Virus record (IMG/VR): IMGVR_UViG_3300000216_000003
Span: 32,001 to 96,000 of that record
Reading direction: 5' to 3' (one strand)
Origin: a virus
DNA: 64,000 nucleotides
Numbering within the stretch: the first letter of the stretch is position 1; each line of letters begins with the position of its first letter. The position numbers and the translations under genes were made by a program. This document shows positions 2,253 through 55,196 of this stretch, in pieces. The notes beneath the pieces are model-generated. The model was not told the DNA's origin and did no database searches. It saw only the letters and a program-made list of their open reading frames with translations.

Positions 2253-2492
2253 TCAGGCATTCTCAAGGAATGCCCGAAGAAGAAGTCTATTGTTTCTTTC
2301 ATTTGTTGATGATCTTATTATTTCTGGTATATATTTTACATCCAACCAATGATATCCGGTTCCTTCCCAGAATTGTATATTTAATACATATTCATTAGTT
2401 GCATCTTGTTTTAATTTAGCAATGGGTTTATTATTTTTTAATAGACAATAAGCCCATTCACTCCAACCTAAATCTTCTTCATTATAAATCAT
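2253..2492 (-). CDS. Small protein with tag A (ends LLLRAFLENA)
   Basis: Coupled ORF in array; shared C-terminal motif. Confidence 0.7.
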   Translation of the reverse strand: MIYNEEDLGWSEWAYCLLKNNKPIAKLKQDATNEYVLNIQFWEGTGYHWLDVKYIPEIIRSSTNERNNRLLLRAFLENA

Positions 2493-2689
2493 ACTAATAA
2501 TAATAAGGCTTTACTAAGTTCTACCTTATTTTCTTTATTAGTACATATTTTTAAATACATACGAATATAATCTAATGATAAAAATATGGAAAAACTAGGA
2601 TCATCATTTAGATACGTCACTTTAAATATTGCAGTATTTCCTGAAACTTTTTGGTATACAAAATTAGATCTATTTACAATATGTTTCAT
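2489..2689 (-). CDS. Small protein with tag A (ends CTNKENKVELSKALLLLV)
   Basis: Stop/start overlaps; shared C-terminal motif. Confidence 0.7.
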   Translation of the reverse strand: MKHIVNRSNFVYQKVSGNTAIFKVTYLNDDPSFSIFLSLDYIRMYLKICTNKENKVELSKALLLLV

Positions 2690-2937
2690 TAACTTTCTTC
2701 TAAAACTAGGCGCATTATTCTGTATTCATCTTCTTTAGATATGCAGTATTTAGAAATTTCTCTTATATTTATACTATCTTTATCTAATTCCCAATAAGGA
2801 CACCCATCACTACCATGAACAAGACATGCTCCAGCTGGTACAGATTTCATCTTTAATTTAATTTGTTCATCATGTGATATTCTAAATTTAACATTAGGAA
2901 TGAAAGAATCCATCCCTCCAAGTGTATTTAAAAACAT
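2689..2937 (-). CDS. Small protein with tag A (ends IMRLVLEES)
   Basis: Array member. Confidence 0.7.
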   Translation of the reverse strand: MFLNTLGGMDSFIPNVKFRISHDEQIKLKMKSVPAGACLVHGSDGCPYWELDKDSINIREISKYCISKEDEYRIMRLVLEES

Positions 2938-2947
2938 ATTAATACCT

Positions 2948-3235
2948 TTATGTTTGACTTAGTATAAATCGAGTTAGTTCATATTTAGCCTGTCGAGTAC
3001 TGCATCTATTTATCATTCTTTTAGCCCCATCTACCGTCATCATATAAGTAGTTGGAAATAATTTAGATTTATTATAAAAATTATAGTATGGTTCAGTTTT
3101 TATTCTAAATACGCCACTATCTCCTATCATATGGTTTAATTTAATTTCCATTATAGTTACATTATCAAGATAGTGTTTTATTTCATCACCTTGTGTTATT
3201 ATTTTATATTTCCAGTTGCGATACCATTCAATCAT
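2948..3235 (-). CDS. Small protein with tag A (ends CSTRQAKYELTRFILSQT)
   Basis: Paralog of 4284-4562 (EPYYN...FP...RCSTRQA). Confidence 0.75.
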   Translation of the reverse strand: MIEWYRNWKYKIITQGDEIKHYLDNVTIMEIKLNHMIGDSGVFRIKTEPYYNFYNKSKLFPTTYMMTVDGAKRMINRCSTRQAKYELTRFILSQT

Positions 3236-3429
3236 AATAGTTTCAATATTAATTTAGTTAAAACATTTTTAGCTTTAGATGTAGTGCAATGATTTAAGAT
3301 GATTCTTGCATCATCAACACCTCTAACGAATAGAGGCATATGACGATCATCATCAAATACCACATATACATGACTACTATCTGGCCATTCATAGGCATTT
3401 ATAATTCTATGAGAATTTAATAATATCAT
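3232..3429 (-). CDS. Small protein with tag A (ends CTTSKAKNVLTKLILKLL)
   Basis: Array member, ATGA overlaps. Confidence 0.75.
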   Translation of the reverse strand: MILLNSHRIINAYEWPDSSHVYVVFDDDRHMPLFVRGVDDARIILNHCTTSKAKNVLTKLILKLL

Positions 3430-3656
3430 GAATGTTCCAATATAAATTTAGTAAGAGTATGTTTTGCTTTATCAGTAATGCAATCAAGTAGATAACTTTT
3501 AGCTAAATATGGGCTTAAATGCATCTCTCTTTTAACTCCGATTGCTTCAGTAACTGTTACAATTGGACATTTTTTACATGTAATTGGTTCCCATATAAAA
3601 ACATCAACTATTCCTATAACGGCTAATATTTCTTCTTCCGTTAATATATCACTCAT
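3426..3656 (-). CDS. Small protein with tag A (ends CITDKAKHTLTKFILEHS)
   Basis: Array member, ATGA overlaps. Confidence 0.75.
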   Translation of the reverse strand: MSDILTEEEILAVIGIVDVFIWEPITCKKCPIVTVTEAIGVKREMHLSPYLAKSYLLDCITDKAKHTLTKFILEHS

Positions 3657-3850
3657 GACTCCTCTAATAATATTCTAAGTAGTTGTTTATCTACTCCAGG
3701 AACATGCGGTTCTTGCATTAACTCTTTAATTGTTTCAGGTGTATTTTTATATCTCATTACTTGATTATACTTATTATACTTATTATACCTTCGAACGAGT
3801 ATATCTAAAGGCCAATTAGATCCATCTTTAGTATTTATAACTTTGAGAAT
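3653..3850 (-). CDS. Unlisted 65-aa protein with tag A, probable ATT start (ends LLRILLEES)
   Basis: Open frame fills the gap exactly; ATT overlaps upstream TAA (TAATT) after AAGGA; ends GAGGAGTCATGA. Confidence 0.55.
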   Translation of the reverse strand: MLKVINTKDGSNWPLDILVRRYNKYNKYNQVMRYKNTPETIKELMQEPHVPGVDKQLLRILLEES

Positions 3851-4284
3851 TATACAGTCCTTAATAAGTATCTCCCAATATTCATTTTTAATTGAGGTCT
3901 CTTTACCAGTTCAAAATATTCTTTTAACATACTTGGTTTTGGACTTTTTGCTATTAATAAATCAACACTATCTAATGATATCTTGTTATAATCACTAATA
4001 TGCACTTTTCTGGCGGTTAAATCAAAATACAGGATAGTATCGATAATATTAAAAGTTATTAATACTTGATCTTCGAAATCAAATATACAAACACCTGTAA
4101 ATTGTTCAATATCTGTATGAGGACAATTTTTTAAATGACAATCTCTTATTCTTTTCTGTTCTGATATGCGCTTAATATACCGATTGGATTGTGGTTCAAG
4201 GGAAGACCATTTATAACCAATACCAGTACTTATTGGTTTTTCATATTCTTTTTCACTAAGTACATCATATCCAAAATGACACAT
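3850..4284 (-). CDS. Hypothetical protein with tag-A-like end (IGRYLLRTV)
   Basis: Coupled ORF in array. Confidence 0.7.
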   Translation of the reverse strand: MCHFGYDVLSEKEYEKPISTGIGYKWSSLEPQSNRYIKRISEQKRIRDCHLKNCPHTDIEQFTGVCIFDFEDQVLITFNIIDTILYFDLTARKVHISDYNKISLDSVDLLIAKSPKPSMLKEYFELVKRPQLKMNIGRYLLRTV

Positions 4285-4562
4285 TATGATCTCTCTAGTA
4301 TAAGTTTAGTAAGTGCATTCCTAGCTTGTCGTGTGCTGCATCTAGGTAATAGTTTAAGCGCATCTTCTTTTGTTAAATGAATTGCCGCAGGAAACCTATT
4401 CCGACGAAATTGCCATTCATTATAATACGGCTCCGGTGTAATTCTGTATGAGTGTAGAAGTTGTTCATATTCAACTAACATAATCGTAGTAGTTAATAGA
4501 TGAGTTATGATATCTTTATATAATTGATTACCTCCATAATCAAATCCATAATCAAACCCCAT
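4284..4562 (-). CDS. Small protein with tag A (ends CSTRQARNALTKLILERS)
   Basis: Array member. Confidence 0.75.
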   Translation of the reverse strand: MGFDYGFDYGGNQLYKDIITHLLTTTIMLVEYEQLLHSYRITPEPYYNEWQFRRNRFPAAIHLTKEDALKLLPRCSTRQARNALTKLILERS

Positions 4563-4759
4563 TATATAGACTCTAATATAAATTTAGTAAGTTCATTTTT
4601 TGCTTGAGGTGTAATGCATCTGGATAGCATATCTTGCGCCTTTATTTTATCCATCATAATATAATAAACTTTCCTATCCAGAGTTATTACTTTAAAATCT
4701 GGACAGGAAAAATGTTCGGTTGGAAGTATACGAATCTCAATTACATCAGTTACTGGCAT
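4562..4759 (-). CDS. Small protein with tag A (ends CITPQAKNELTKFILESI)
   Basis: Array member coupled to topoisomerase stop (TAATG). Confidence 0.75.
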   Translation of the reverse strand: MPVTDVIEIRILPTEHFSCPDFKVITLDRKVYYIMMDKIKAQDMLSRCITPQAKNELTKFILESI

Positions 4760-6084
4760 TACTTTAAGCTATCAAGTCTATCTAAAGTTAGTTTATCATG
4801 ATCTTTTATATCACCTAAAATCCGTTTAAGATCTCCTTGAACTGCGACTATATCAATATCTTTTTCAATTAAAGTTTTAATTCGATATTTACCACAGACT
4901 TGTCTAATTTCATCGTCTTCAATATTCATCTTATTATATGGAATAGTATGAGCATAAATTTGTCTAAATCCAGTAACTAAGTCATCTACTTTTTTCAAAG
5001 AAGATCCAGATTCAACTAACATCCTAATAATACTAATAATATTAAGTTCTCTGATTTTCTTTTGACTCTTAGCTAATTCATCTTTTAGATTACCCATCCA
5101 AGCATCTTTCCATTTAGAAAAAGCATTGAAAAGTATTTGATCTATCGAATATAATTGCACAGTGCCGTTCTCACTAACAAAATTACATTTTACATTTACT
5201 TTAGAACTAACTTGCATTTGAACTGTATGAATAAACTGTTGATCACAATTACCTTTTCTAGGGGTAACCTCAATACATAACACCTTTTTCTCAGTTAAAT
5301 CTATGACATCATAGTACGGAATCTTGTTCTTTTCTTCATATTTTTCATTAAAGGAAATCAACCTAGAGAAACCGATTAATGGATTTTTACCTAGAATATA
5401 TACTGAATTATTTTTAACAATTATTTTCGGTACTATTTGAACAGTTCCAATACCAGTTGTCAATATTTTTTCAAAATCACCAACAGTCTCTTCATATACA
5501 TCACAATTCTCTACTTGTGGTATAATTGTAGGTGGTGTTTGATTTGTTAATAATGCATGAGTTCTACTTATTAGATCAAAGAAAGAATATCTTGGAATTT
5601 TAGTAATATTAAAGGAAATACCCGTAATAAACCCATTTCCGATTAATCCTAGGGGGATTGGAGAAGGTAGGTATAACGGCTCTTTCTCTAATTCTATCTT
5701 CTCCCAAGGTACAAAATCAAGAAACTCACTAAACATCTTATCTAAATAACTAGATGTTTTAATTTCTGTGTATCTATAGGCAGCTGCTTTAACACTATGT
5801 AATGCATCATGTCCCCAGTTTCCCATCGGTTCAGCGAAACCACGTTTGGCTAGGGATATAAGAGATGCATAAGTAGATAGATCACCATGAGGGTGATAAT
5901 GTGCAATAGCTTGACCTACAATTTTAGCAGATTTTACAAATTTGCCACCTCTTGCCACTTCATGCAGGCAGAGTAATAATCGTCTTTCGACAGGCTTTAG
6001 AGCGTCGACGTCACCAGGAATTGCTCTTAGAGCATCTGTGTATCGTCCATATGTTGCATATAGTGATGGGATAGCAATTTTCAA
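4759..6084 (-). CDS. Type IIA DNA topoisomerase subunit A (GyrA/ParC/T4 gp52-like, no C-terminal pinwheel)
   Basis: RAIP..DALKPVERR, KSAKIVG, YHPHGD, AAAYRYTE with catalytic Tyr. Confidence 0.92.
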   Translation of the reverse strand: MKIAIPSLYATYGRYTDALRAIPGDVDALKPVERRLLLCLHEVARGGKFVKSAKIVGQAIAHYHPHGDLSTYASLISLAKRGFAEPMGNWGHDALHSVKAAAYRYTEIKTSSYLDKMFSEFLDFVPWEKIELEKEPLYLPSPIPLGLIGNGFITGISFNITKIPRYSFFDLISRTHALLTNQTPPTIIPQVENCDVYEETVGDFEKILTTGIGTVQIVPKIIVKNNSVYILGKNPLIGFSRLISFNEKYEEKNKIPYYDVIDLTEKKVLCIEVTPRKGNCDQQFIHTVQMQVSSKVNVKCNFVSENGTVQLYSIDQILFNAFSKWKDAWMGNLKDELAKSQKKIRELNIISIIRMLVESGSSLKKVDDLVTGFRQIYAHTIPYNKMNIEDDEIRQVCGKYRIKTLIEKDIDIVAVQGDLKRILGDIKDHDKLTLDRLDSLK

Positions 6085-6096
6085 AGTTTACTTTCC

Positions 6097-7089
6097 TTAT
6101 GACAAAGATAATTGGAACCTATTAAGTTTATTTCTAAAAGCATTATATTCACCGACCATATGAACATATGCAACCATACGAGTAAGCATTCCAGTATAGT
6201 CATAATCATAACTACCTAGTTCAACATTTCGTATACATGGTACACTTACCCATATTTTTTTAAATGCTTGAGGATTATAAATATTAAATACTAACCCTTT
6301 TATATTTATAACCATATTTGTTTTATACTTACTTGCTGTAGCGGCATCGTTAATTCTAGTCATTTGCTTTAGAATAGATTCAACATCATCTGTTATTTTA
6401 TCTTGTGAATTAAGCAAATTTGTATATTCTGCATTTTTAAATATGGATGCTATTTTATTAATACTAGAAGATGGGATATCTATTGTTGAATGACTATTAC
6501 TAGTATATGATCCATCTGCAAGATAGTTTAAAAATTTCAAATGTTCTGATGTAGTACTATCTCCAATCTTTTGAATATTTTGCAGTTTCTTAATAATTGT
6601 CTTTAATTTATCTGTTAATTTTTCTTCTAATGGGTAAAAACCCAACATACCTATAGTACATTCAAAATTTAAATAAGTATAATTATCCCCTACTTGGCGT
6701 TTACTATAAATTGATAATTCTTTAGGTCTTAAATTAACCCGAAATTGATGAGCAGTGCCTTCGAAAACCTTGTCTATTAATTTTTGAAAATTGATAGTTT
6801 TAATTGCCTGTTTATTTGTAAACCGACAAGCAGAATGCCCTTCTACTTCCCGTATAGTTATACTACTAAAACGATTACTATCATCAATAATAAATATAAC
6901 ACCGTTTTTTACATTAGCAATACCTTGCCTACTATTAATTTGATCAAATTCAATCATTGATGAGAATGCCCACCCTGCATTATCAACAAGATAAATCCCT
7001 TTTTGGTTTTCTAATAAAGAGGAGTATTTATTACCACCCCTAAATATTATATCATTATTAGATGCTTCCAAAATATTCGTTATTTTCAT
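6097..7089 (-). CDS. Hypothetical protein, possible internal head protein
   Basis: 330-aa ORF; N-terminus MKITNILEA resembles T4-type capsid-targeting leaders. Confidence 0.5.
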   Translation of the reverse strand: MKITNILEASNNDIIFRGGNKYSSLLENQKGIYLVDNAGWAFSSMIEFDQINSRQGIANVKNGVIFIIDDSNRFSSITIREVEGHSACRFTNKQAIKTINFQKLIDKVFEGTAHQFRVNLRPKELSIYSKRQVGDNYTYLNFECTIGMLGFYPLEEKLTDKLKTIIKKLQNIQKIGDSTTSEHLKFLNYLADGSYTSNSHSTIDIPSSSINKIASIFKNAEYTNLLNSQDKITDDVESILKQMTRINDAATASKYKTNMVINIKGLVFNIYNPQAFKKIWVSVPCIRNVELGSYDYDYTGMLTRMVAYVHMVGEYNAFRNKLNRFQLSLS

Positions 7090-7487
7090 GTTAGTAACAG
7101 TTTAATCCTTTGAAATTCGTGAATAACAGTTTTGACTGCGCTATAATGTCTTAGTATCTGATACATTTCAACTGGAAATTTTTTCTCATTTACTTCAAAT
7201 ATATAAGAATCTGTCTCAGTATTAACTGATATAGATCTTTTAGTTCCCCCATTTTTATTCCCTACCAACCAGTATAGTTTTATACTACCAGTTTCAAAGA
7301 ATTTTTTATATATATGTCTATCCATAAATTGAAAGTTCGGTTCTTTCTCATCTTTAATAATATAATCAAGAAATTTTTCTCCACAATTATCCAATTCTAA
7401 TAGAGAGGCATGTATTTCTTTTATATTATCAAAATCTTGAACCGTATTTGTAATGGTATTCATATATTTAGCGTCAAGTTTTATCAA
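7086..7487 (-). CDS. Hypothetical protein
   Basis: ORF coupled to both neighbours. Confidence 0.65.
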   Translation of the reverse strand: MIKLDAKYMNTITNTVQDFDNIKEIHASLLELDNCGEKFLDYIIKDEKEPNFQFMDRHIYKKFFETGSIKLYWLVGNKNGGTKRSISVNTETDSYIFEVNEKKFPVEMYQILRHYSAVKTVIHEFQRIKLLLT

Positions 7488-8400
7488 TATTCATTAACTC
7501 CGAAACATCTTTTGTTAATATTGGCTTATAATATTCAGCAGTACATTCTGGATTTAATTGATTCATTACTTGAGTTATTGAAAATTTAATTTGATTCGTA
7601 TTCAAAATATCAGCATCGAAAACAATTTTAAAGTTATGTTTTCCGATTAATAAAAAATTAGTAATTAGTTCTTTAACTACTTTTGTATAATACTTACCAT
7701 TAATGGCTAAGAAAAAATTATTCTTAGTATTAAAAATACTATAATGGTAAAGATTAATAGCATCAAATGCACCTTCACATATAACAATAGATTCGAATTC
7801 ATCTATCTTTCCTATATCTTGAAAGAAATAATATTGTTTATTGGTTGCATTCATATAACGTATTTTTGAAGGAGATATAAATCTAGAAGTGACTATATTT
7901 CCATTATAATTACTAAATGTACATCTTAATTTATTATCATATACATCTGGGTATAAGAAATGTTCTAGTGCCGATCCATCTAATATTCTTGTATATAAAT
8001 ATCTTTGAAAAACATCATAATATTGTGGATTATTACTTCTAAACTCTCTATGTATACTTTGTATTGGTATTTTTTTCTGTTTTATTAATGATTTTGAAGA
8101 GGATGTAAATACATAATCAGTCTTAAGAGATGCAAGTTTCCTAAGCACATCTATATTACTAAATCCACCATCTTTTAATAACTTTAATAATGAACCCTTA
8201 CTATCACATCTAAAACAGTTAAAAAATGGCTTCCTTCTACCAATATTCATATGCCCGTGGGATGGATTTAACTTTCTAATTGCATCATCACAGTAAGGGC
8301 AAAACATTTCATAATATTCATGATTTGGTAACAGTTTAAATATTTTTGAAGTTGTTTGTAAATGATATACGATATCAGGAAAGTCTTCTATTTGAAACAA
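7474..8400 (-). CDS. DNA primase (zinc finger + TOPRIM)
   Basis: CPYC...FNCFRC zinc finger; ICEGAFDA and VFDAD TOPRIM motifs; C-terminal KD. Confidence 0.88.
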   Translation of the reverse strand: MFQIEDFPDIVYHLQTTSKIFKLLPNHEYYEMFCPYCDDAIRKLNPSHGHMNIGRRKPFFNCFRCDSKGSLLKLLKDGGFSNIDVLRKLASLKTDYVFTSSSKSLIKQKKIPIQSIHREFRSNNPQYYDVFQRYLYTRILDGSALEHFLYPDVYDNKLRCTFSNYNGNIVTSRFISPSKIRYMNATNKQYYFFQDIGKIDEFESIVICEGAFDAINLYHYSIFNTKNNFFLAINGKYYTKVVKELITNFLLIGKHNFKIVFDADILNTNQIKFSITQVMNQLNPECTAEYYKPILTKDVSELMNIDKT

Positions 8401-8433
8401 TTAAAACCCTCCAATTAATGCATTAACATATTT

Positions 8434-8445
8434 ATTATATCTATA
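8434..8445 (-). promoter_or_regulatory. Phage promoter motif TATAGATATAAT
   Basis: Upstream of primase. Confidence 0.7.
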
Positions 8446-8460
8446 TAAGATCAATAAAAA

Positions 8461-8757
8461 CTAATATATTTCTAGAAGTATATCAGATACATGATTAGGA
8501 TTGTCTCCAAATATATAGACAGATTGACAAGAACTTATTATGTTTACTAATTCACCATTAAAGAATTCTAACTGCCAGAAGTTTTGCCAATGATGGTCAT
8601 CATCTGTCTTTACTTTATATGGATTTCCAAATAATAAAAATAATCTATCATTATTAGAATAGTTCGGTATTTGTATCTGTATTTGACTTGGGTCATTAAC
8701 TCCAAAGAACCCGGATTCAGAAAGAGTTTTGATATGTTTACATTTATAATTTCTCAT
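8461..8757 (-). CDS. Hypothetical protein
   Basis: Coupled ORF; LFGNPYK..DD....FWQLEF typical of small phage proteins. Confidence 0.65.
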   Translation of the reverse strand: MRNYKCKHIKTLSESGFFGVNDPSQIQIQIPNYSNNDRLFLLFGNPYKVKTDDDHHWQNFWQLEFFNGELVNIISSCQSVYIFGDNPNHVSDILLEIY

Positions 8758-9104
8758 ATTTTAATTCTTAAGTGTTTAAATACTGGCACTATTGCTTTTA
8801 ATGAATTTGATCTTACTCTTAAATTATTGTCATATAACCTTATTATAACACAATATTTTCCAATCTTCAATTTCCAGAAGATTGCCGGTCCTGGATCAAC
8901 CCAGTCATTTTCTTCATCTACCATCTGCCAAAATGAATCTTTTGGTGGTTGTGGTTCCTTAGTACCTCCACCAATCATTAATGCTATCCTATCTTCAGTT
9001 ATATTTTCTTTTTTATAGTAAACTTCAAATTTATATTTTTGAGAACACATATCTTGTTTTCGAACATTCAAAGCAGTAAATTTTAACATTGGTAAGTTCT
9101 CCAT
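8754..9104 (-). CDS. Hypothetical protein
   Basis: Coupled ORF. Confidence 0.6.
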   Translation of the reverse strand: MENLPMLKFTALNVRKQDMCSQKYKFEVYYKKENITEDRIALMIGGGTKEPQPPKDSFWQMVDEENDWVDPGPAIFWKLKIGKYCVIIRLYDNNLRVRSNSLKAIVPVFKHLRIKI

Positions 9105-9391
9105 AACTCTTTACTTACTTTTTCTAATGATTCATGACTTGGCCCAAAATCAGGGTTTGGATAAGTTTTAAAGGGAGTACATTTTTCCAATAGAAATACA
9201 TGTTCTTTTAATGGTGAACAATTACATTCCCAATACACCGCCTCTTCATATAGAAGCGGTATATTAACTGTTGCTTTACAGGACCGACAATCATAACCAG
9301 CCCATGTAAAGAATGAAGAGAGCCTAGATATAACTAGAGCTTCTCTATATGGTGTTTTTTCTACAATAGTAATATCTTCTCTAAATCCCAT
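9083..9391 (-). CDS. Hypothetical protein, possible zinc-binding
   Basis: CRSC and CNC motifs. Confidence 0.6.
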   Translation of the reverse strand: MGFREDITIVEKTPYREALVISRLSSFFTWAGYDCRSCKATVNIPLLYEEAVYWECNCSPLKEHVFLLEKCTPFKTYPNPDFGPSHESLEKVSKELWRTYQC

Positions 9392-9971
9392 TTTTTAAAT
9401 CAATATAATCACTATATTGATCCAATATAGGAATAATAAAACTATCTACAAAATCGGTTAAATCAGTATCAAATATATCTAATGCGACAGTTAATTTCAT
9501 AGTTTCTTTTGGCATGTTGATTGTTTCATCTACATTATGCATAGTTTCTAATGCTTTAATCTTAAAATTAAAATGAGAAACTAATAATTTTTTCAGTTCA
9601 TATGAATCAGTTGGGACTGTTTCTAAAGAAGGTAATGTAATTTTAACCATATCTACAAACAGTATTTCATAAATAAAACGGCCCATAGTTTGAAGCCGTT
9701 GTGATGATAAATTTATAGATTCTTTATAAGGTAAAGAAAAATAATTTTCATCAATATAATCAATCATATCAATTAGTGATTGTTCTGGTAATTCATCAAA
9801 TCCTTGCATATAATTAATACCAAGATTTGTCAAATGTATATATTGACTTTGAATATCAGTATCAAGTTCTTCTTTGACTATAAATCTGTTAATTTGTTTG
9901 ATGATATGCGGATGCCAAGAGGCACCCGCTTTAGTTACATCATCATTATATAGTAGTGTTTCGTTGATCAT
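9381..9971 (-). CDS. Hypothetical protein
   Basis: 196-aa ORF with AAGG RBS. Confidence 0.7.
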   Translation of the reverse strand: MINETLLYNDDVTKAGASWHPHIIKQINRFIVKEELDTDIQSQYIHLTNLGINYMQGFDELPEQSLIDMIDYIDENYFSLPYKESINLSSQRLQTMGRFIYEILFVDMVKITLPSLETVPTDSYELKKLLVSHFNFKIKALETMHNVDETINMPKETMKLTVALDIFDTDLTDFVDSFIIPILDQYSDYIDLKNGI

Positions 9972-9987
9972 AATATATTAAATACCT

Positions 9988-10869
9988 TTAAATTAATAAG
10001 TTTTCATCGCCGGATTGGCTGATGTCTTCATATAGTGTTACTGAAATATATCCAGTATTAATTCTACTCATAAGCCAGAATGTATCTTCTACTTTTCCAA
10101 GATGTACTTCATATGCTTCTGCTTCAATCTGTAGAAAACTATAAGACTTAAGTACCAACTGTACATTCACATCTGAAAGAGTTGGTTCGTTTCTATATGC
10201 TGGAAATGTATATACAATAGTCTCTGGGATAGACATTGCTTTTAATTGATCATTATCTACCAGCAATTCAACATATTCAGCCCCTGCCCCTGTAATAACA
10301 CCTTTAATAATTTTAATTACATTTTTATCAAGAGCCAAAGGAACACCAATAGCAGTAGCTGCACTTAGATCTGGCGGAGATTGATCTTCTGTTAACTCTT
10401 CAATTTGTTTTGGAAGAATAATCACCATATCATTATTTTTAATTAGATATTGTTGTTGCTCTGGATTATCAATAATCTGAACATCATCATTACCACGTAA
10501 AGCCTTAAATAATTTAATATATTTTTCAGGATTAATAATATGTAGATTAATATCAGGACCAAGAAGCTCACTAACATCAATATTAATAACAGCGGTACCT
10601 TTATTAATAGACTGATTAATAGTACTATTACTAATAGTAATTACACCAGTTTTTTCCAGAATACTGAGTAGTTTAGCTAATTGATCCCATTCAGCAGGAC
10701 TAATCTTAGCCAGTAGAGTCTGCCCTTCTCCAAGAGCAACAGCCGGTGTGGCTACTGGTGTAGCCTCTGGTGTAGCAGCCAAAGGAGCAGTTTCTTGAAG
10801 TTCAGGCATAATTAATTCTTGGGTTGGTGAAGCCTCTGCTGGAGTAGTAGATGCGAAGACGTTTGTCAT
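9988..10869 (-). CDS. Probable sliding clamp (gp45/PCNA-like) with A/P/T-rich N-terminal extension
   Basis: Acidic two-domain alpha/beta pattern reminiscent of T4 gp45; clamp loader and primase nearby; not search-verified. Confidence 0.45.
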   Translation of the reverse strand: MTNVFASTTPAEASPTQELIMPELQETAPLAATPEATPVATPAVALGEGQTLLAKISPAEWDQLAKLLSILEKTGVITISNSTINQSINKGTAVINIDVSELLGPDINLHIINPEKYIKLFKALRGNDDVQIIDNPEQQQYLIKNNDMVIILPKQIEELTEDQSPPDLSAATAIGVPLALDKNVIKIIKGVITGAGAEYVELLVDNDQLKAMSIPETIVYTFPAYRNEPTLSDVNVQLVLKSYSFLQIEAEAYEVHLGKVEDTFWLMSRINTGYISVTLYEDISQSGDENLLI

Positions 10870-11228
10870 TTAGTTTCCTTTTCAGTCATGATTTTATTGA
10901 AAGTGTATTTTTCCCGATTTTTATTTATAATATCTTGAATAGTTGAACATGGTTCTGTAACTTTAATATTTACGATAATGCTTCCATTTGAATAATATTC
11001 TTTTTCTCTTCTAATAGTATATATACATCCGACTGATGACTTTTCTACCATCGATTCTGTTAGCCAATATTCATCGCTATGAGGATTGGTATGTAACAAT
11101 ACTAACCCAACACTACTAAGAATTAAGAGTGCGCTAAAAAACCAGGTTCCATAAGGAAAATTTTCAACAAAAAACATAATAGTAAAAAATAAGGACATTA
11201 TACATATTATCGGTAGTGCTATTTCCAT
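10866..11228 (-). CDS. Membrane protein (2 TM), paralog of 11229-11597
   Basis: Two hydrophobic helices; shared C.Y..R...PCSTIQ..I..NR.KY. Confidence 0.75.
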   Translation of the reverse strand: MEIALPIICIMSLFFTIMFFVENFPYGTWFFSALLILSSVGLVLLHTNPHSDEYWLTESMVEKSSVGCIYTIRREKEYYSNGSIIVNIKVTEPCSTIQDIINKNREKYTFNKIMTEKETK

Positions 11229-11597
11229 TTAATTATCACCTTCTGTACGTATGGTACTATTTAATATTTTATACTTTTTCCGGTTCTCATCTATAGTAGA
11301 TTGAATAGTGGAACATGGTTTATCAATATTGATAATTGTAATATCCTGTCTAGAAATACTCCATCCTTTATGTTTTCGTAGTGAATAATAACAATTATTA
11401 GGGAGTTGTTGTATATATTCTTTATAATAATATGTTGGACTCCCTTTCATAATATCATAAGATTTGCCACCGGCTGCTATTCCACCTAATAAAAACATCA
11501 AACCAACAAAATAGTGGGTTGTTTTGTTTGCGGTTAATATAAAAATTATTGCTAATGTAAGCAATACAACAGCTACAATTATAAGAATAATATCCAT
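11229..11597 (-). CDS. Membrane protein (2 TM), paralog of 10866-11228
   Basis: Same motif set as its neighbour. Confidence 0.75.
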   Translation of the reverse strand: MDIILIIVAVVLLTLAIIFILTANKTTHYFVGLMFLLGGIAAGGKSYDIMKGSPTYYYKEYIQQLPNNCYYSLRKHKGWSISRQDITIINIDKPCSTIQSTIDENRKKYKILNSTIRTEGDN

Positions 11598-12011
11598 TTA
11601 ACAAACCTCGATTATTTCATCTGAATTTAGAAAATTCCGACGTTCAATTACTCCGAAAGTGCTATTATCAATAGTATAATATATCCGTTTTAATCCTATT
11701 TTATTTAAATAGTTCATACAGTGTTTACATGGTTTCGCTAGTCTGAATTTATTTGCTTTATCGATTCTAACGACTAACATTTCCAATCCTTTTAGATCTA
11801 TATATGCATTTAATACTGCGTCCTGCTCTGCATGAAGACTCCCTACCCATTTCATATATTTAGGATGTAGACGTCTTTTACTTCTCTGAGCTGTGTTTTT
11901 ACCTTTAGATATGATTTTTGATTTATTAAATATAATAGCACCTAGTTTAAATTGGTGGTCTACTTTTTTAGCTTCTTTAACAGCCGCCGTAATGAAACTC
12001 TTTTTAAACAT
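11598..12011 (-). CDS. Zinc-dependent cytidine/dCMP deaminase-fold protein
   Basis: HAE and PCKHC motifs; LGAII...G.N. Confidence 0.85.
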   Translation of the reverse strand: MFKKSFITAAVKEAKKVDHQFKLGAIIFNKSKIISKGKNTAQRSKRRLHPKYMKWVGSLHAEQDAVLNAYIDLKGLEMLVVRIDKANKFRLAKPCKHCMNYLNKIGLKRIYYTIDNSTFGVIERRNFLNSDEIIEVC

Positions 12012-12044
12012 AAACCCCTCTTTCTATTCATTAATATGTAATTT

Positions 12045-12056
12045 ATTATATCTATA
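12045..12056 (-). promoter_or_regulatory. Phage promoter motif TATAGATATAAT
   Basis: Upstream of deaminase operon. Confidence 0.7.
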
Positions 12057-12074
12057 TATTAATAAATAAAAACA

Positions 12075-12180
12075 AGTAAAAGATCATCAATAACCGAGGT
12101 TATTAATGAAGACACAATCTTAAACTCCAGGGATTAACCCGAAGGTTAAATCTGTGAGAACTAGGACAAGTCCTAATTCT
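12075..12180 (-). ncRNA. Candidate ~105-nt three-hairpin small RNA
   Basis: Own promoter at 12187-12218; hairpins AGAAUUAGGAC/GUCCUAGUUCU, UUAACC-UUCG-GGUUAA, UCAUUAAUAACC/GGUUAUUGAUGA then U-tract. Confidence 0.55.
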
Positions 12181-12186
12181 TTATAT

Positions 12187-12218
12187 ATAATATCTATATC
12201 AAATCTTTGAAAACGTGG
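12187..12218 (-). promoter_or_regulatory. Phage promoter motif (CCACGTTTTCAAAG..TATAGATATTAT)
   Basis: Full-length copy of the motif. Confidence 0.7.
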
Positions 12219-12228
12219 TGATTCTATA

Positions 12229-12747
12229 TTAGAAAGAATTACCAGTTACTGCACTAAATGCACTAAAGTCAACATCAGAGAACTCTAAATTATGTGAAGC
12301 AATAGTATATTCAATTGATTGTTCTTGTGCACCAAGAGTGGGTAATAGATTTCCAGTTATAGGATCTACATCCAAATTTCCATTACCAAGTGCAATAATA
12401 ATTGGAAGATCTGGATTAGAATACATAAACATTGAAGTATATAGTGTGAATGCTGTTTCTACTACTTCAACATTAGTAGCGTCCATATCATCATCAACAA
12501 TAATCTTTAGAAATGTAGGAGATCCATCTCTTGATATCACATTTACATAACTAGCAGCATATGCTCTTATTAATGTAAATTTAGTAGCGTTACTTGGAAG
12601 AACAATGGACCCACTTAATAGATATTTTGGGTTTGTTAATATTGTTTTTCCACTTGATGATACTAGATCTTGTGATTCTTGATATGCAGCCCCACCTCCA
12701 GCATACTCAATAATTTTTGTTTTAGTTTCAGTGATAAGTTGTTTCAT
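12229..12747 (-). CDS. Hypothetical protein, possible virion protein
   Basis: Acidic, beta-rich; N-terminus MKQLITE resembles a prohead-protease leader. Confidence 0.55.
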   Translation of the reverse strand: MKQLITETKTKIIEYAGGGAAYQESQDLVSSSGKTILTNPKYLLSGSIVLPSNATKFTLIRAYAASYVNVISRDGSPTFLKIIVDDDMDATNVEVVETAFTLYTSMFMYSNPDLPIIIALGNGNLDVDPITGNLLPTLGAQEQSIEYTIASHNLEFSDVDFSAFSAVTGNSF

Positions 12748-12843
12748 TAAATTATATACCTTTTTATATCATTTAAGAATGTTACTAATCCTATATAGTG
12801 TATAAGACTTTAAAAAATAATATTAATATTTAGGCCCCAATAT

Positions 12844-12925
12844 ATTATATCTATATATTCCTGCTACGTAAATAAAAACATACAAGCTATTTTTTACTTT
12901 TATCTAGTTTTGATATAGATATAAT
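12844..12925. promoter_or_regulatory. Divergent pair of promoter motifs (12844-12855 minus, 12914-12925 plus)
   Basis: Two TATAGATATAAT copies back to back. Confidence 0.7.
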
Positions 12926-12961
12926 AAAATACTATTTCCTCTTTTACAAAGGATTTTTACT

Positions 12962-13129
12962 ATGAAAGCATTCCGTATTCGGAAGAACAACTATTTGTTC
13001 CTGGAAGGCTGTATACAAAACCTATTTTACTCAGAAGGAGTACCGCCACATTTCAAATTTCAACAAGAAATGCCATTTAAAAGACCATCAAAGAAAGGTG
13101 TTATATTCTTTTGTAGAAAAAAGACATAA
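12962..13129 (+). CDS. Unlisted 55-aa basic protein (MKAFRIRKNNYLFLEG...)
   Basis: Own promoter motif, AAGGA RBS, followed by terminator hairpin. Confidence 0.6.
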   Translation: MKAFRIRKNNYLFLEGCIQNLFYSEGVPPHFKFQQEMPFKRPSKKGVIFFCRKKT

Positions 13130-13140
13130 AGAAATAAAGA

Positions 13141-13182
13141 AATAAAAGAGTAATCGTAATAATATACGTTACTCTTTATTTG
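13141..13182. terminator. Bidirectional intrinsic terminator
   Basis: AAAGAGTAA..CGTA/TACG..TTACTCTTT hairpin between convergent genes. Confidence 0.6.
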
Positions 13183-13521
13183 TTATGACCATTTTAAAAT
13201 TAGTTTTGTTATTGTTTTTTGATCCAAAGATGATTTACCATCTTTAAGCCTCTGTATCCATTCAATTTTAGATATTTCTTTATCAATAATATACCATCTA
13301 TCTGGATTATCATTATTAAATATTATAGCTGGTCCATCTTCTCTATGTAATAACCCATTATTAAACCAATATTTATTTCCTGTACTTGTATTTACAAAAG
13401 CATACCCATCTTCTCTATGTAGTTCTCCGTATGTATTTGTCCATATTAAATGGTCACCATCTTCATCAGTTTCACCTTTAAGATTAGGTGGATATATGTC
13501 AATTGTATAATGTTTACTCAT
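13183..13521 (-). CDS. LHREDGPA-repeat protein with tag A (ITKLILKWS)
   Basis: Two HREDG(P/Y)A repeats. Confidence 0.8.
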   Translation of the reverse strand: MSKHYTIDIYPPNLKGETDEDGDHLIWTNTYGELHREDGYAFVNTSTGNKYWFNNGLLHREDGPAIIFNNDNPDRWYIIDKEISKIEWIQRLKDGKSSLDQKTITKLILKWS

Positions 13522-13523
13522 TA

Positions 13524-13859
13524 TTAACTATTCTCCAGTATGATTCTGTTGATTGTCTTTTGATCCAGAGAGGATTTACCATCTCTTAAGTATTGAATCC
13601 ATTCATCTTTCGTTATATATTCACCATCAATATACCATTCATTAATATTTCCACTTTTCCAAATGCAAGCAGGACCATCTTCTCTATGTAACACGCCTCT
13701 ACAATACCAATATTCGGCACCAGTTTTATAAATAATTGCTGGTCCATTTTCTCTATGAAATAATCCATCAGAATCAGTCCATACACGATCACCATATTTA
13801 CATTCATCCCCATTTAAATTGGGAATAAATAATTCTTCATCGTATATGTCATTTGGCAT
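13524..13859 (-). CDS. LHREDGPA-repeat protein with tag A (INRIILENS)
   Basis: HRENGPA and HREDGPA repeats. Confidence 0.8.
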   Translation of the reverse strand: MPNDIYDEELFIPNLNGDECKYGDRVWTDSDGLFHRENGPAIIYKTGAEYWYCRGVLHREDGPACIWKSGNINEWYIDGEYITKDEWIQYLRDGKSSLDQKTINRIILENS

Positions 13860-14179
13860 TAACTATGCTCCAGTATGAGTTTTAATTCTGTATTTCGACC
13901 TAAACTAGAGGCAGCTTCTTTAAGCCATTGAAGCCACTCATCTTTTGAAATATCTATTCCATAGACATACCATCTAAGATCATATGATTCATCAACAGCT
14001 GGACCATCTTCTCGATGTAACCACCCATGATAGAACCAATTAACATGCCCATCTGGATATATAATAGCTGGACCATCTTCACGATGCCATCTACCTTCAG
14101 AATCAGTCCATATCATATCTCCATCTTGGTCTAATTCACCTTTAATATTGGGTTTAGTGCGTACAGTTGTATTATTCAT
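13859..14179 (-). CDS. LHREDGPA-repeat protein with tag A (ELKLILEHS)
   Basis: Two HREDGPA repeats. Confidence 0.8.
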   Translation of the reverse strand: MNNTTVRTKPNIKGELDQDGDMIWTDSEGRWHREDGPAIIYPDGHVNWFYHGWLHREDGPAVDESYDLRWYVYGIDISKDEWLQWLKEAASSLGRNTELKLILEHS

Positions 14180-14484
14180 ATATTAAGACATTTCTTAATA
14201 GATTTAATAGCAGCTTCCATCTTTAGACGGGCAGAAGAATTAGCACTATGAACTTTTAATTTGGGGCATTTAAAACTTTTATTTAAGTGTACTTGTTCTT
14301 CAATGTATAATAAAACATCATAACCAGTACCAATACCTTCATCGTCTCCTAAGTCATGATCTAAACTAATTACAGATATCCTTTCTGGATGTTTTAGTAA
14401 TGTTATTACTTCTTTAGGGGTTTTTAATAGTATCCAAGTATTATCATATGGAGTTCTTTCATCATCGAGATATATTTTCATCAT
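14176..14484 (-). CDS. Cyclic-phosphate-processing receiver-like domain protein
   Basis: IYLDDER, ISLDHDLG...GTGYD, VHSAN motifs. Confidence 0.75.
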   Translation of the reverse strand: MMKIYLDDERTPYDNTWILLKTPKEVITLLKHPERISVISLDHDLGDDEGIGTGYDVLLYIEEQVHLNKSFKCPKLKVHSANSSARLKMEAAIKSIKKCLNI

Positions 14485-14744
14485 GAATTCTCCAATATTA
14501 GACGAGTAATTTTATCAATTGAAATACTCGGATTACCAGATTTAAGCCATTGTATCCATTGTTTCTTAGTCATAATATTACCGTGATTGTAATATATTTC
14601 GAATTTATTATTAGTAATCATAGCCGGGCCATCTTCTCGATGTAGTTCTCCTTTATCATCACACCAAATTAAACCACCATCTACAGTAGCGACACCTTGT
14701 ACATTACGACGACTATGTTTTATACTATCTTCATTAAATGTCAT
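14481..14744 (-). CDS. LHREDGPA protein with tag A (ITRLILENS)
   Basis: One LHREDGPA repeat. Confidence 0.8.
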   Translation of the reverse strand: MTFNEDSIKHSRRNVQGVATVDGGLIWCDDKGELHREDGPAMITNNKFEIYYNHGNIMTKKQWIQWLKSGNPSISIDKITRLILENS

Positions 14745-15091
14745 GATTCCTCCAATATTAATCCAATTAATTCATTTCGCTCTTTTCTTGTTATATTTTT
14801 AATATTATCTAAAATATACCTAGCATCTTCTCCCCTCAATTCTGAAGTTTTTATATTTATAACAACTCCATTATCCCAAATATTTAATAATCCATGCATA
14901 ATATCTAATATTTTTCTAAAATCTAAATCATAATCATCAAACTCATTTGTAAAAATAGTTATATCCATATTACTAGAATACTTATTCTCATCTAAACATA
15001 CTCTAAATAATTCAGTTTCTAGTGTAATTTTGATCATTTTAGTAACATATGTAATAACTTTTTCTTCTGCCGCTTCTCGTCTCGATATCAC
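14741..15091 (-). CDS. Paralog-family protein with tag A (LIGLILEES)
   Basis: Shares LF motif and C-terminal helix pattern with 15088-16721. Confidence 0.75.
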   Translation of the reverse strand: MISRREAAEEKVITYVTKMIKITLETELFRVCLDENKYSSNMDITIFTNEFDDYDLDFRKILDIMHGLLNIWDNGVVINIKTSELRGEDARYILDNIKNITRKERNELIGLILEES

Positions 15092-15450
15092 GATTGCTCC
15101 AATAGATGTCTTCTGAGTGAATTCTCTTCTTCTGAAGAAAGATTTTTACTTCTATTTAACATATCTCTAGTTTGACAATTATTCAATATATCTGCTCTAA
15201 CTGATATATTTATTATATCAGCACCGAAAAATACATCAGGGTCTAGAATATCCCTCCTAATTATATTATACCAATATTCTGATATATTAATATAGGATTC
15301 AAAATTCAAATCTTTAATCGGTAGATACCGGATAGAAATAGCCGTAATATTATAATCTGTTGTTGTAGTATATTTTACTATAAACAGATTAGATCCGATA
15401 GTCTTCTGAACTAGTTTTTTAACTTCTTTTATTAATTGATCAGTTGTCAC
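15088..15450 (-). CDS. Paralog-family protein with tag A (LRRHLLEQS)
   Basis: GTG start overlapping upstream stop. Confidence 0.75.
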   Translation of the reverse strand: MTTDQLIKEVKKLVQKTIGSNLFIVKYTTTTDYNITAISIRYLPIKDLNFESYINISEYWYNIIRRDILDPDVFFGADIINISVRADILNNCQTRDMLNRSKNLSSEEENSLRRHLLEQS

Positions 15451-15815
15451 GATTGTTCCAATAGATGTCTATTTAACATATTAGTTTCTTTATTGGAAAG
15501 ATTTGGTATTATTCGGAATATATCCATTATTTGTTTTTTCTCTAATATATTAGTATTAATAATTAAATGCTTAATTTTATTATATGTTTTACTATCTCTA
15601 AACATATCTTCTATTTTATGTTTCAAATATTCATCAGTTGGAATAGTTCCAAGTAGAATATTACCTCTCATAATAGTAATAACTTCAGATTGTAGATACC
15701 ATATAGTTAAATACATAGTATTATTAATTCTAGAAGTATCTAATATGAAAAGTCGGTTGCCTAGTATATTTCGACATATAGTTCTTGTATTTCTAATTAT
15801 CTCTTTTTCAGTCAT
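15447..15815 (-). CDS. Paralog-family protein with tag A (LNRHLLEQS)
   Basis: Array member. Confidence 0.75.
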   Translation of the reverse strand: MTEKEIIRNTRTICRNILGNRLFILDTSRINNTMYLTIWYLQSEVITIMRGNILLGTIPTDEYLKHKIEDMFRDSKTYNKIKHLIINTNILEKKQIMDIFRIIPNLSNKETNMLNRHLLEQS

Positions 15816-16372
15816 GATTGCTCCAATATCACTCTATTTAATCTAATCGTTTCTTTAACTGTAATAGAAGGGATAGTATCTAAAAGATGTAAAACTGCTG
15901 CTTTATTTAATTCTTCAAACACTATCTTTATTCTAATCCCTCTCATATCTCCAGTTTGAACAATTGCACCTCTCATAATTGGAATCTTCCATTTTACAGA
16001 GTTTTGCATCATTCTTCGTTGAATAAACATACGATTATTAGAAGTATTAGCTTCATGATCTACAAATATTCGAATATAACAATCAAATGGTTTAATACTG
16101 TTCCATTGTATTGTATGGTTATAATCGATTGCAAATAATCTATTTGGCAGTATCATTTTAGCTATCATAGTTACGTCATTTTTTATCTTATTTAATCTAC
16201 TTAATCTAGATCTATATACTAATTCACCAGTCTCTCTAGGAGATATAAAAGGGGGTGTTGATATACTACGAGGCATAGCCGGTATTGCGAATACGGGTAT
16301 TCCTGGTTCTATGATTGGATTTTCTTCATAAGACTTTATCCACATATCATGAAACGATTTTAAACTAAACAT
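15812..16372 (-). CDS. Paralog-family protein with Pro-rich N-extension and tag A (LNRVILEQS)
   Basis: Array member. Confidence 0.75.
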   Translation of the reverse strand: MFSLKSFHDMWIKSYEENPIIEPGIPVFAIPAMPRSISTPPFISPRETGELVYRSRLSRLNKIKNDVTMIAKMILPNRLFAIDYNHTIQWNSIKPFDCYIRIFVDHEANTSNNRMFIQRRMMQNSVKWKIPIMRGAIVQTGDMRGIRIKIVFEELNKAAVLHLLDTIPSITVKETIRLNRVILEQS

Positions 16373-16373
16373 T

Positions 16374-16721
16374 CTAAGAATCCTCCAATATTATACGAGT
16401 TAATATATTCTTTTCATAACTAGTAATATCATAAAGAGTATCAAGAAGAGATTGGGCTTCTTCCCTCCCCAATTTATTTATGGTTATATCTTCTACTCTT
16501 GCTCTTTTATCTGTTATTCCAGTATTTATTAATTGTTGTAGATTGTATAATAAAACAACTGATATTGAATCTTTATTTATATGAGATATTTTAATTTTTA
16601 CTTCATTATATTTTATACTTTTCTTTATCTTAAATAATCTAGTATTTGTCATTACTTCTATTATATAATACATACTATTCTTTATTGTATCTAAGTGAAC
16701 CCTTTTTTGAGAAGATATCAT
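16374..16721 (-). CDS. Paralog-family protein with tag A (LTRIILEDS)
   Basis: Array member. Confidence 0.75.
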   Translation of the reverse strand: MISSQKRVHLDTIKNSMYYIIEVMTNTRLFKIKKSIKYNEVKIKISHINKDSISVVLLYNLQQLINTGITDKRARVEDITINKLGREEAQSLLDTLYDITSYEKNILTRIILEDS

Positions 16722-16990
16722 ATATTTTCCAGTAATGCTTTAGTAATTATATTTAACGGCAACTTTGAATGTTTTTTAATCCAATTTCTCCAATCTTCTT
16801 TACTAAGACTCCTCCCATGTATGTAAAATAGATCATCCTTATTAATATTTCCTCTTATAATAGCAGGGCCTTCTTCTCTATGTAATTTCTTATCTTTTCT
16901 GTAATAACAATTACCAAAAGGATCAATATATTGTATATCTAGTGTTATCCTTGCTATCTCAGTTATTACTGTAATATCATCCCGATCCAT
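16718..16990 (-). CDS. LHREEGPA protein with tag A (ITKALLENI)
   Basis: First gene after promoter at 17025. Confidence 0.8.
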   Translation of the reverse strand: MDRDDITVITEIARITLDIQYIDPFGNCYYRKDKKLHREEGPAIIRGNINKDDLFYIHGRSLSKEDWRNWIKKHSKLPLNIITKALLENI

Positions 16991-40220: not shown

Positions 40221-40527
40221 TCATTCTGATCTATTGAGCCTTGATGAAATGCCTTCGGCTTCGGTCGAAGGTACTTCTGAAAATAATGATTATACTTTAG
40301 AAATTAAAGGGAAAACAATATATATTCCAAATACTCATCTTGTTGGTATTGGATTAATATGTTCAATGATTGATATTAATGGTTATCCTATGTATAAATC
40401 ATTAAAGAGAAATGGCCCAGTATTGGATCAAGTTATAAAAAAACAGATATTAACAGTATTACTAGAAACTGAATCCGAGTCTAATTTTAAAAATGAAATA
40501 ACTAGAGAATTATTGGAGTTAAATTAA
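40207..40527 (+). CDS. Small protein with tag A (ITRELLELN)
   Basis: Last 23 bp identical to those of the next gene. Confidence 0.65.
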   Translation: MAKCDHSDLLSLDEMPSASVEGTSENNDYTLEIKGKTIYIPNTHLVGIGLICSMIDINGYPMYKSLKRNGPVLDQVIKKQILTVLLETESESNFKNEITRELLELN

Positions 40528-52290: not shown

Positions 52291-52308
52291 TAGGTTGGAG
52301 ATAAGTCA

Positions 52309-55185: not shown

Positions 55186-55196
55186 CTGGAATTAAT

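Follow-up and report, generated by a model that had tools for sequence, protein, structure and literature searches.

The capsid-targeting sequence (CTS) of the internal proteins of phage T4 is an N-terminal peptide of about 10 residues, carried by a handful of proteins and removed by the prohead protease (PMC3012670), and the T4 proteins gp43, gp55 and gp33 bind the sliding clamp by means of highly similar, interchangeable extreme C-termini (PMC2988020). In this work, a C-terminal tail shared by many small proteins was analyzed in a window of 64,000 nucleotides from an uncultured marine giant phage (bases 32001-96000 of the 106,480-bp IMG/VR virus record IMGVR_UViG_3300000216_000003; 30% G+C; CheckV completeness estimate of 41%, with about 60% of the genome missing). 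Coordinates are those of the window unless the record is named, and residues are counted backwards from the stop codon, the last residue being -1. When aligned from the stop codon, the tails gave the consensus (S/K)(E/K)(L/I/F)-K-N-x-(L/I)-T-(K/R)-x-(I/L)-L-E-x-S, referred to below as tag A. As judged from its residues and codons, the tail is a predicted C-terminal helix under protein-level selection, specific to this phage lineage, and it would be mostly a module rather than a trace of whole-gene paralogy.

Like the tail, the CTS is a short conserved peptide on diverse, fast-evolving small proteins, and it is portable and ends in hydrophobic-x-Glu (PMC3012670). The peptide analyzed here is, in contrast, C-terminal throughout (19 strict and 61 super-motif matches; patterns defined below), it occurs on about a third of the genes, and it is found in replication operons; (I/L)-L-E was frequent at the tails, but the E at -3 is tied to a ribosome-binding site. 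The clamp-binding tails of T4 also are similar C-terminal peptides on unrelated phage proteins; they are hydrophobic and acidic, and that of gp55 is attached to a divergent, probably unstructured linker (PMC2988020). However, they belong to three proteins, including the DNA polymerase, compared with about 69 ORFans in the present case, and the tail is further set apart from them by a polymerase that lacks it and by its helix, both basic and hydrophobic, which is folded in the model obtained.

Encapsulin cargo-loading peptides and the encapsulation peptides of bacterial microcompartments are short terminal helices that bring unrelated cargo to one shell protein. Those systems differ in having few cargoes and a nearby shell gene, while no match to ChmA was found here on the 41% fragment. 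At the DNA level, the PeSLs of T4-type phages are non-coding cassettes of early promoter and stem-loop, located between open reading frames (ORFs) in variable regions (PMC2839356, PMC4122927). They resemble the present case in providing a conserved junction between ORFans for gene insertion, loss and shuffling, of which a 53-nucleotide repeat in the window is a comparable footprint; they differ in that the junction here is coding (helix, ribosome site and start), contains no internal promoters and is conserved as protein. With regard to import into the phage nucleus (Chimallivirus), a shared label would be one means of sorting for a giant phage with a multisubunit RNA polymerase; import into phage nuclei, where described, is independent of terminal signals. 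A literature search retrieved no description of such a C-terminal tail, in line with the first-pass annotation, whose author knew of no phage system with this layout.

Abundance, register and conservation of the tail

In order to estimate the frequency of the tail, a strict pattern ([LIVM][TSNG][KR].[ILV]L[EKDQ].[ST]) was scanned over the 214 ORFs (33,336 residues) of the whole record. All of the 19 matches obtained were located at the exact C-terminus, with no internal match, and none was found in 200 shuffles. A looser pattern gave 46 C-terminal and 17 internal matches in the same 214 ORFs, for a shuffle mean of 0.12. The super-motif [LIVMFC](-9)-x-[KR](-7)-x-x-L(-4)-x-x-x-stop ended 61 of 207 record ORFs, compared with 0.7 expected from per-position rates, and among these 207 C-termini position -4 was L in 82 (z = 15.5), -7 was K or R in 80, and -3 was E in 56. 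Moreover, a six-frame scan of the record with a 32-residue C-terminal profile hit 44 places, all of them gene ends. Around 69 ORFs of the record, i.e. about a third of its genes, shared the common register when the array at 52096-55600 was included, so that the initial figure of about 25 tagged proteins was too low.

The tail was absent from the phage DNA used as control. The looser pattern was absent from all 945 ORFs of 55 other phage loci, and the super-motif from all 244 ORFs of a 193.5-kb distant relative, in which the strongest C-terminal positional enrichment reached z = 3.2. Searches with the topoisomerase gene in IMG/VR and JGI metagenomes returned only relatives with 31-35% full-gene identity, none of them tailed, and one 3.4-kb contig with 54% identity over the first 124 residues, also without the tail. 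From 1.84 billion proteins, the 32-position tail profile retrieved only two, one nearly identical to a protein of the window and the other a repeat protein matched by chance, the motif being too short at that scale to be informative on other phages, and it had no meaningful match among PDB sequences. A 5-mer-seeded search with a 42-residue tail alignment returned only proteins of this same phage, and neither the proteins P0003 and P0019 nor the alignment of the C.T..AK family matched IMG/VR or GTDB genomes.

Tagged and untagged genes also differed in their distribution. Using tblastn against the 193.5-kb relative and the 55 loci, matches were obtained for none of 69 tagged genes (E up to 0.01) and for 21 of 130 untagged ones (E up to 0.001), on the basis of which the tail would mark a lineage-specific accessory set. 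All recognizable enzymes lacked the tail, as illustrated by the 896-residue DNA polymerase (record 21948-24638), which ends in ...AYAIKSKWPG; the statement that enzyme-like genes such as the topoisomerase and the receiver-like protein are untagged was thus confirmed.

The information content of the aligned tails exceeded the background to about -15, delimiting a conserved helix of 13-15 residues. L was present at -4 in 49 of 50 aligned tails. The least informative positions were -10, -6 and -2, which form one stripe if the segment is helical, and the rest of the helix circumference consisted of conserved positions, including the polar N(-11), T(-8) and K/R(-7); these three lie in mid-helix and were retained across unrelated bodies. 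Conservation operated on amino acids rather than on nucleotides: K/R at -7 was encoded by AAA, AGA, CGT, CGG, CGC and CGA, S at -1 by TCN as well as AGT, and DNA identity among tails was only 60-77% over 35-67 nucleotides. The rate of shared codons in pairs with the same residue was close to that given by genome usage (0.32 vs. 0.38 at -9, 0.25 vs. 0.33 at -4 and 0.31 vs. 0.27 at -1), with a slight excess at -8, -7 and -5. Conservation reached about -15 and was maintained through differing codons; it was therefore not confined to the nucleotides of the GGAG and ATGA signals, and such confinement had been named at the outset as a result that would refute the proposal.

The tails were also kept while the bodies drifted. 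Within five families, the last 13 residues were 36-55% identical and the bodies 15-19%, the exception being the MORN-like family (37% vs. 37%), whose repeats were conserved as strongly as the tail. For all pairs of tag A proteins, identity was 29% in the tail and 7% at residues -40 to -28, the latter comparable to the 6.5% of untagged C-termini. In addition, a 48%-identical JGI metagenome homologue of the 330-residue protein (6097..7089) kept FRNKLNRFQL (-13 to -4) intact, its last three residues being replaced with their number unchanged, and a 55%-identical MORN-like homologue on a 284-kb contig retained the tail.

Tagged genes, their bodies and the tail as a cassette

The genes considered were the following (coordinates, strand, description):

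2253..2492, minus strand: 79-residue ORFan, degenerate tail ...LLRAFLENA; closes array 1
2489..2689, minus strand: 66-residue ORFan, degenerate tail ...LSKALLLLV
2689..2937, minus strand: 82-residue ORFan, tail ...IMRLVLEES
2948..3235, minus strand: 95-residue ORFan, tail ...LTRFILSQT; C.T..AK helix-loop-helix module
3232..3429, minus strand: 65-residue ORFan, tail ...LTKLILKLL
3426..3656, minus strand: 76-residue ORFan, tail ...LTKFILEHS
3850..4284, minus strand: 144-residue ORFan, degenerate tail ...IGRYLLRTV; no downstream coupling
4284..4562, minus strand: 92-residue ORFan, tail ...LTKLILERS
4562..4759, minus strand: 65-residue ORFan, tail ...LTKFILESI
6097..7089, minus strand: 330-residue protein in the primase-topoisomerase operon, tail FRNKLNRFQLSLS
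7086..7487, minus strand: 133-residue ORFan, tail ...FQRIKLLLT; variant with K at -5
13183..13521, minus strand: 112-residue MORN-like repeat protein, tail ...ITKLILKWS; at the end of its operon
13524..13859, minus strand: 111-residue MORN-like repeat protein, tail ...INRIILENS
13859..14179, minus strand: 106-residue MORN-like repeat protein, tail ...ELKLILEHS
14176..14484, minus strand: 102-residue cREC_REC receiver-domain protein, no tail (end ...KKCLNI)
14481..14744, minus strand: 87-residue MORN-like protein, tail ...ITRLILENS
14741..15091, minus strand: 116-residue ORFan of the 14741-16721 family, tail ...LIGLILEES
15088..15450, minus strand: 120-residue protein of the 14741-16721 family, tail ...LRRHLLEQS
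15447..15815, minus strand: 122-residue protein of the 14741-16721 family, tail ...LNRHLLEQS
15812..16372, minus strand: 186-residue protein of the 14741-16721 family, tail ...LNRVILEQS
16374..16721, minus strand: 115-residue protein of the 14741-16721 family, tail ...LTRIILEDS
16718..16990, minus strand: 90-residue MORN-like protein, tail ...ITKALLENI
40207..40527, plus strand: 106-residue ORFan following the split gene for ribonucleotide reductase, tail ...ITRELLELN
40528..40836, plus strand: 102-residue ORFan, tail ...ITKQLLELN
41301..41561, plus strand: 86-residue ORFan, weak off-register tail-like end ...LILKDIKELS; membership doubtful
50439..50684, plus strand: 81-residue ORFan directly 3' of the NAD-dependent DNA ligase gene, tail ...LQKLILNII
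52096..55600, plus strand: array of paralogues of 63-78 residues, ends (L)(L)(K/R)x(K/R)L(E)x(S)
62639..62860, plus strand: open frame, -1 relative to 61989-62711, end ...LTKELLKIT
62857..63723, plus strand: 288-residue ORFan, tail ...LQQEILKLI
Record 15083-15310 (outside the window), minus strand: seventh tagged MORN-like gene, tail ...VSRLILEYS

The arrays and dispersed genes named in the first-pass annotation all exist and end as it described, with the end at 41301 being weak and the -1 frame at 61989 closing in ...LTKELLKIT. In array 1 (2253-4759), all nine ORFs of at least 35 residues were tagged, three of them with degenerate tails (2253, 2489 and 3850). In array 2 (13183-16990), 10 of 11 ORFs were tagged, the only untagged one being the receiver protein at 14176-14484, whose cREC_REC domain (cyclic-phosphate processing receiver; E = 2.5e-23) stands alone; its presence inside the array indicates that array position does not confer the tail. 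The gene at record 15083-15310 was overlooked when the longest ORFs were picked and was recovered by the six-frame profile scan. The tails of the 52096-55600 array can be regarded as a variant of tag A, given that they share its register (hydrophobic residue at -9, K/R at -7 and L at -4); in a profile-profile alignment (hhalign) the ends of tag A and of this (K/R)x(K/R)L family aligned in register, although not significantly (probability 4%). The frame at 62639-62860, whose stop codon overlaps the ATG of 62857 and whose overlap with 61989-62711 starts at 62639 and contains a run of six T (62656-62661), may result from a frameshift in the gene, from an error of the assembly, or from slippage giving tagged and untagged forms.

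Comparison of the bodies linked only a few small groups by BLASTP. In profile-profile alignments (hhalign), the 14741 family matched the C.T..AK family, found in array 1, over 31 C-terminal columns that span a helix, a loop and a second helix (E = 9e-5, probability 60%). Only the last nine residues aligned when it was compared with the family of record position 8193, and no alignment was obtained with the MORN-like family. Based on these results, the shared unit measures about 9-13 residues at its shortest and, at its longest, is a helix-loop-helix of some 31 residues. Together with the finding of tailless MORN-like homologues in other sources and phages, this bears out the earlier suggestion of a modular tail, as opposed to paralogy of whole genes. 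Tagged proteins ranged from 65 to 330 residues, and apart from one with paired CxxC motifs, none could be assigned to a Pfam family; the Pfam matches of that body were below the cut-off, and its motifs suggest a candidate zinc ribbon.

The MORN-like bodies, present in seven tagged genes, consist of repeated W-x-x-x-G-x-(L)HRxDGPA units that align with one another, without a Pfam MORN match. The structure model of 13524..13859 was confident (predicted local distance difference test score (pLDDT) of 89.5, predicted TM-score (pTM) of 0.80) and beta-rich, with helices at 84-92 and 100-110. The latter is the tail helix, modelled at a pLDDT of about 95 and preceded by helix 84-92, which suggests that the tail is part of the fold and not a free peptide. 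In this one confident model the helix belongs to the domain and is no floppy tag, which corrects the picture of the constant docking helix originally proposed. The top Foldseek rows of this model were all MORN proteins, with weak scores (E >= 0.18; best VIA Z of 4.4). The model of 4562..4759 had low confidence (pLDDT 61) and showed two short strands and helices at 38-48 and 51-64. Fold searches with both models gave no clear match, and the ESM Atlas nothing usable.

A database protein, P0002, was identical to 13524-13859 over approximately the first 65 residues, then differed by another MORN-like repeat and helix, with the tail retained; this mosaic points to recombination between paralogous genes of a related strain.

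Two ideas on the nature of the tagged proteins were also considered. The strand-helix-helix topology of the 65-residue protein, taken from its low-confidence model, would fit a ribbon-helix-helix protein, but nothing beyond the topology supported it, and no Pfam, PDB-sequence or fold match was obtained. A membrane-binding amphipathic helix was dropped because the hydrophobic moment of the tail was ordinary (0.34 vs. 0.30) and the charge and isoelectric point (pI) of the tagged proteins were undistinctive; the last 15 residues were net basic, with a median pI of 8.5.

The end of the tail overlaps the signals for translation of the following gene. The L-E codons were mostly TTG/CTG-GAG, which provides the GGAG of the next gene, and the last residue and stop codon (TCA-TGA or AGT-TAA-TG) form its overlapping start. 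E at -3 was found in 36 of 58 coupled and 3 of 11 uncoupled genes (p = 0.047), and translational coupling accounts in part for this residue and for S at -1, both at the close of the originally described motif. Coupled genes do not generally carry the tail, a point on which the proposal could have failed: of the 68 genes that have an ATGA or TAATG overlap, 39 lacked the motif, among them all enzymes with such overlaps. Conversely, uncoupled genes such as 13183 (at an operon end) and 3850 retained the tail core. Coupling thus shapes the last four codons, yet it does not explain the tail. As for the register lock, in which L is always followed by three residues, the simplest account is that helix end, ribosome site and start are inherited as a unit. 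Recoding was dropped as a possibility in view of standard stop-codon use.

The footprint of one such event was apparent at 52651-53086, where a 53-nucleotide direct repeat (tail plus ATGA) brackets an inserted, unrelated gene for an acidic protein of 115 residues. The inserted gene begins inside the upstream tail in another frame, and a relic tail cassette (53034-53086) lies in frame behind its TAG and runs to the next ATGA. This arrangement is that of a new gene dropped in front of a resident unit of tail, Shine-Dalgarno site and start, and the loss of a single stop codon would tag the inserted gene. Tail, Shine-Dalgarno site and the start codon of the gene that follows are inherited as a single cassette, which would spread by two routes, i.e. 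tandem duplication in small-gene arrays and insertion of new coding sequences ahead of a resident cassette. The two combined would explain how mutually unrelated bodies came to share one tail.

Possible roles of the tail

The reading that we favor, with a confidence somewhat short of even, is that the tail may be a common handle, read in trans by one partner of phage or host origin. It is favored by the presence of constant residues, polar ones among them, on unrelated bodies, by their restriction to one class of genes, and by their retention while the bodies drift. According to this reading, L/I(-9), T(-8), K/R(-7), I/L(-5), L(-4) and N(-11) would be presented to the shared reader, and the stripe -10/-6/-2, which varies by family, would be either exposed to solvent or facing each protein's own body; the reader would handle the whole fast-evolving accessory proteome as one group. 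We infer both the existence of such a reader and its action. A more specific version, rather unlikely in its full form, holds that the helix is an address label by which one reader grips about a third of the products through N(-11), T(-8), K/R(-7) and L(-4), for capsid loading, compartment sorting or timed removal, and that new genes become labelled by insertion before the cassette of tail, Shine-Dalgarno site and ATG.

Should such a handle be present, it would be of use in a field where most genes of large phages are small ORFans that offer no handle for study. A single helix that marks about a third of the genes, cleanly apart from core enzymes, would form one functional class, and if the reader were found, a common pathway would be obtained for dozens of uncharacterized proteins at once. 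The tail would also serve as a portable tag to direct foreign proteins in infected cells, and its cassette structure suggests how, in a simple manner, a new phage gene could carry the label and be translated from the moment it arises.

Several results weigh against a reader and a label. No match to MoxR (AAA_3), vWA (VWA_2) or the S77 protease (PF03420) was found on the 41%-complete record, nor to ChmA, PicA or PhuZ (phmmer and tblastn with phiKZ gp54, gp69 and gp39, 106-kb fragment), and the sole BRCT domain on the record is that of the ligase itself; with some 60% of the genome missing, all of these negatives carry little weight. The confident model, with the tail helix within a compact fold, is fitted equally well by an integral structural helix. 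The register lock needs no recognition of a free C-terminus, since E(-3) and S(-1) depend partly on coupling. Furthermore, no relative with a different tail was found among the relatives searched, and the tail may have descended from the end of one ancestral gene.

This last explanation, possible but doubtful and the main rival of the common handle, regards the tail as a structural or self-association helix kept by descent. One small ancestral gene would have been duplicated in tandem, with the helix as folding core or dimerization element and without an external partner, and the N-terminal parts would have diverged under diversifying selection or been extended by fused parts, for example MORN-like repeats or a zinc ribbon. 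Tandem arrays of genes of similar size, the strand-helix-helix end apparent in several families, the 31 C-terminal columns shared by two of them and the tail helix confidently modelled inside the compact MORN-like fold are all consistent with it; a salt bridge between K(-7) and E(-3) (i to i+4) would be possible within the helix, and the poor monomer model of the 65-residue protein would suit an obligate oligomer. However, N(-11), T(-8), K/R(-7) and L(-4) are held across beta-hairpin repeats and non-aligning ORFan families alike, some families align over nine residues only, MORN-like proteins of other phages fold without the tail, and a tail cassette was seen captured by an inserted unrelated gene.

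Two further proposals are versions of the common handle with a given reader. In the first, the tail would be a C-terminal counterpart of the T4 sequence, i.e. a capsid-targeting label for loading into the prohead and subsequent injection, with a possible cut by the prohead protease after L/I-x-E. This is improbable. Many proteins are packed in the heads of giant phages, and most coupled genes end in I/L-L-E, but the tagged genes accompany replication genes and not virion genes, the E at -3 is partly accounted for by the ribosome-binding site, and no S77 protease match was obtained on the incomplete record. In addition, the T4 sequence is N-terminal and removed, whereas a cut here would take two residues only.

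The second version, which we regard as clearly improbable, is a degron or protease-adaptor tail, in which an AAA+ protease or unfoldase of host or phage would read the helix, either for the timed removal of early proteins or for the delivery of host targets by the variable body for degradation. ClpX usually grips C-terminal peptides, as in the ssrA tag and the ClpX-binding peptide of the adaptor SspB, and the marking of small accessory proteins but not of enzymes would be compatible with such a function. Against it, the E-x-S end is, to our knowledge, unlike the known C-terminal signals of ClpX or Lon, the modelled helix is folded into the domain and leaves no exposed free end, and no protease gene was recognized on the record.

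A role at the level of translation, in which the nascent peptide or its mRNA would tune termination and re-initiation at the stop-start overlaps, appears highly improbable. It would suit the strong association with tight coupling (in 41 of 46 motif genes the downstream gene overlapped or lay at most 15 nucleotides away), the location of GGAG and ATGA within the last four codons of the tail and the slight excess of shared codons at three positions. That association is nonetheless confounded, since small-gene arrays are tightly packed anyway, and the role is further contradicted by the core retained in terminal and uncoupled genes, by the 39 coupled genes without a tail, by near-random synonymous sites at most positions and by the preservation of K/R and S via unrelated codons. 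Capsid targeting, a degron or adaptor and a translational role are each less likely than either a common handle or descent from one ancestral gene. Finally, a pure coupling artefact, i.e. a likeness merely imposed on the frame by a GGAG-N5-ATGA junction in an AT-rich genome, is excluded as far as sequence analysis goes: L-E-x-S-stop does coincide with TTGGAG...TCATGA and E at -3 is commoner in coupled genes, but conservation extends to about -15, the 39 coupled genes with like junctions have unrelated ends, other AT-rich phage DNA yielded none in 945 and 244 ORFs, and amino acids were preserved through differing codons.

Gene content and transcription units

Proteins identical to those of this record were found on contigs of up to 284.6 kb in the 5-mer-seeded search with the 42-residue tail alignment, on the basis of which the complete phage probably measures around 284.6 kb. 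Recognizable genes in and around the window included those for a clamp loader, a topoisomerase II subunit, a primase, a dCMP deaminase and a radical-SAM enzyme, together with a ribonucleotide reductase with a LAGLIDADG endonuclease gene inside, pieces of a multisubunit RNA polymerase, an NAD-dependent ligase and a 5'-3' exonuclease. Genes were directed leftward up to about 24 kb and rightward beyond. The tagged arrays share operons with replication genes, behind copies of a phage promoter motif, TATAGATA(T/A)(A/T)AT, of which 28 copies were present on the whole record, located 5' of transcription units and co-oriented with them. Each tagged array had this motif at its head and none internally; the first gene behind the copy at 17036 was 16718..16990.

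The large subunit of the ribonucleotide reductase was split into two pieces, corresponding to profile positions 205-488 (37108-38160) and 508-780 (39012-40220), with the LAGLIDADG homing-endonuclease gene (38295-38993) between them, which could represent a mobile insertion, an intron or a split without an intein. At 45895-47811, a gene for a beta-like piece of RNA polymerase (Rpb2 domains 6 and 7) directly adjoined one for a homing endonuclease of the GIY-YIG/NUMOD type (44815-45894). A third type of tail, ...P(T/S)xx(V/L)xxYxKL(Y/W)W(S), was observed at 22174-26477, on either side of the strand switch, likewise with L at -4.

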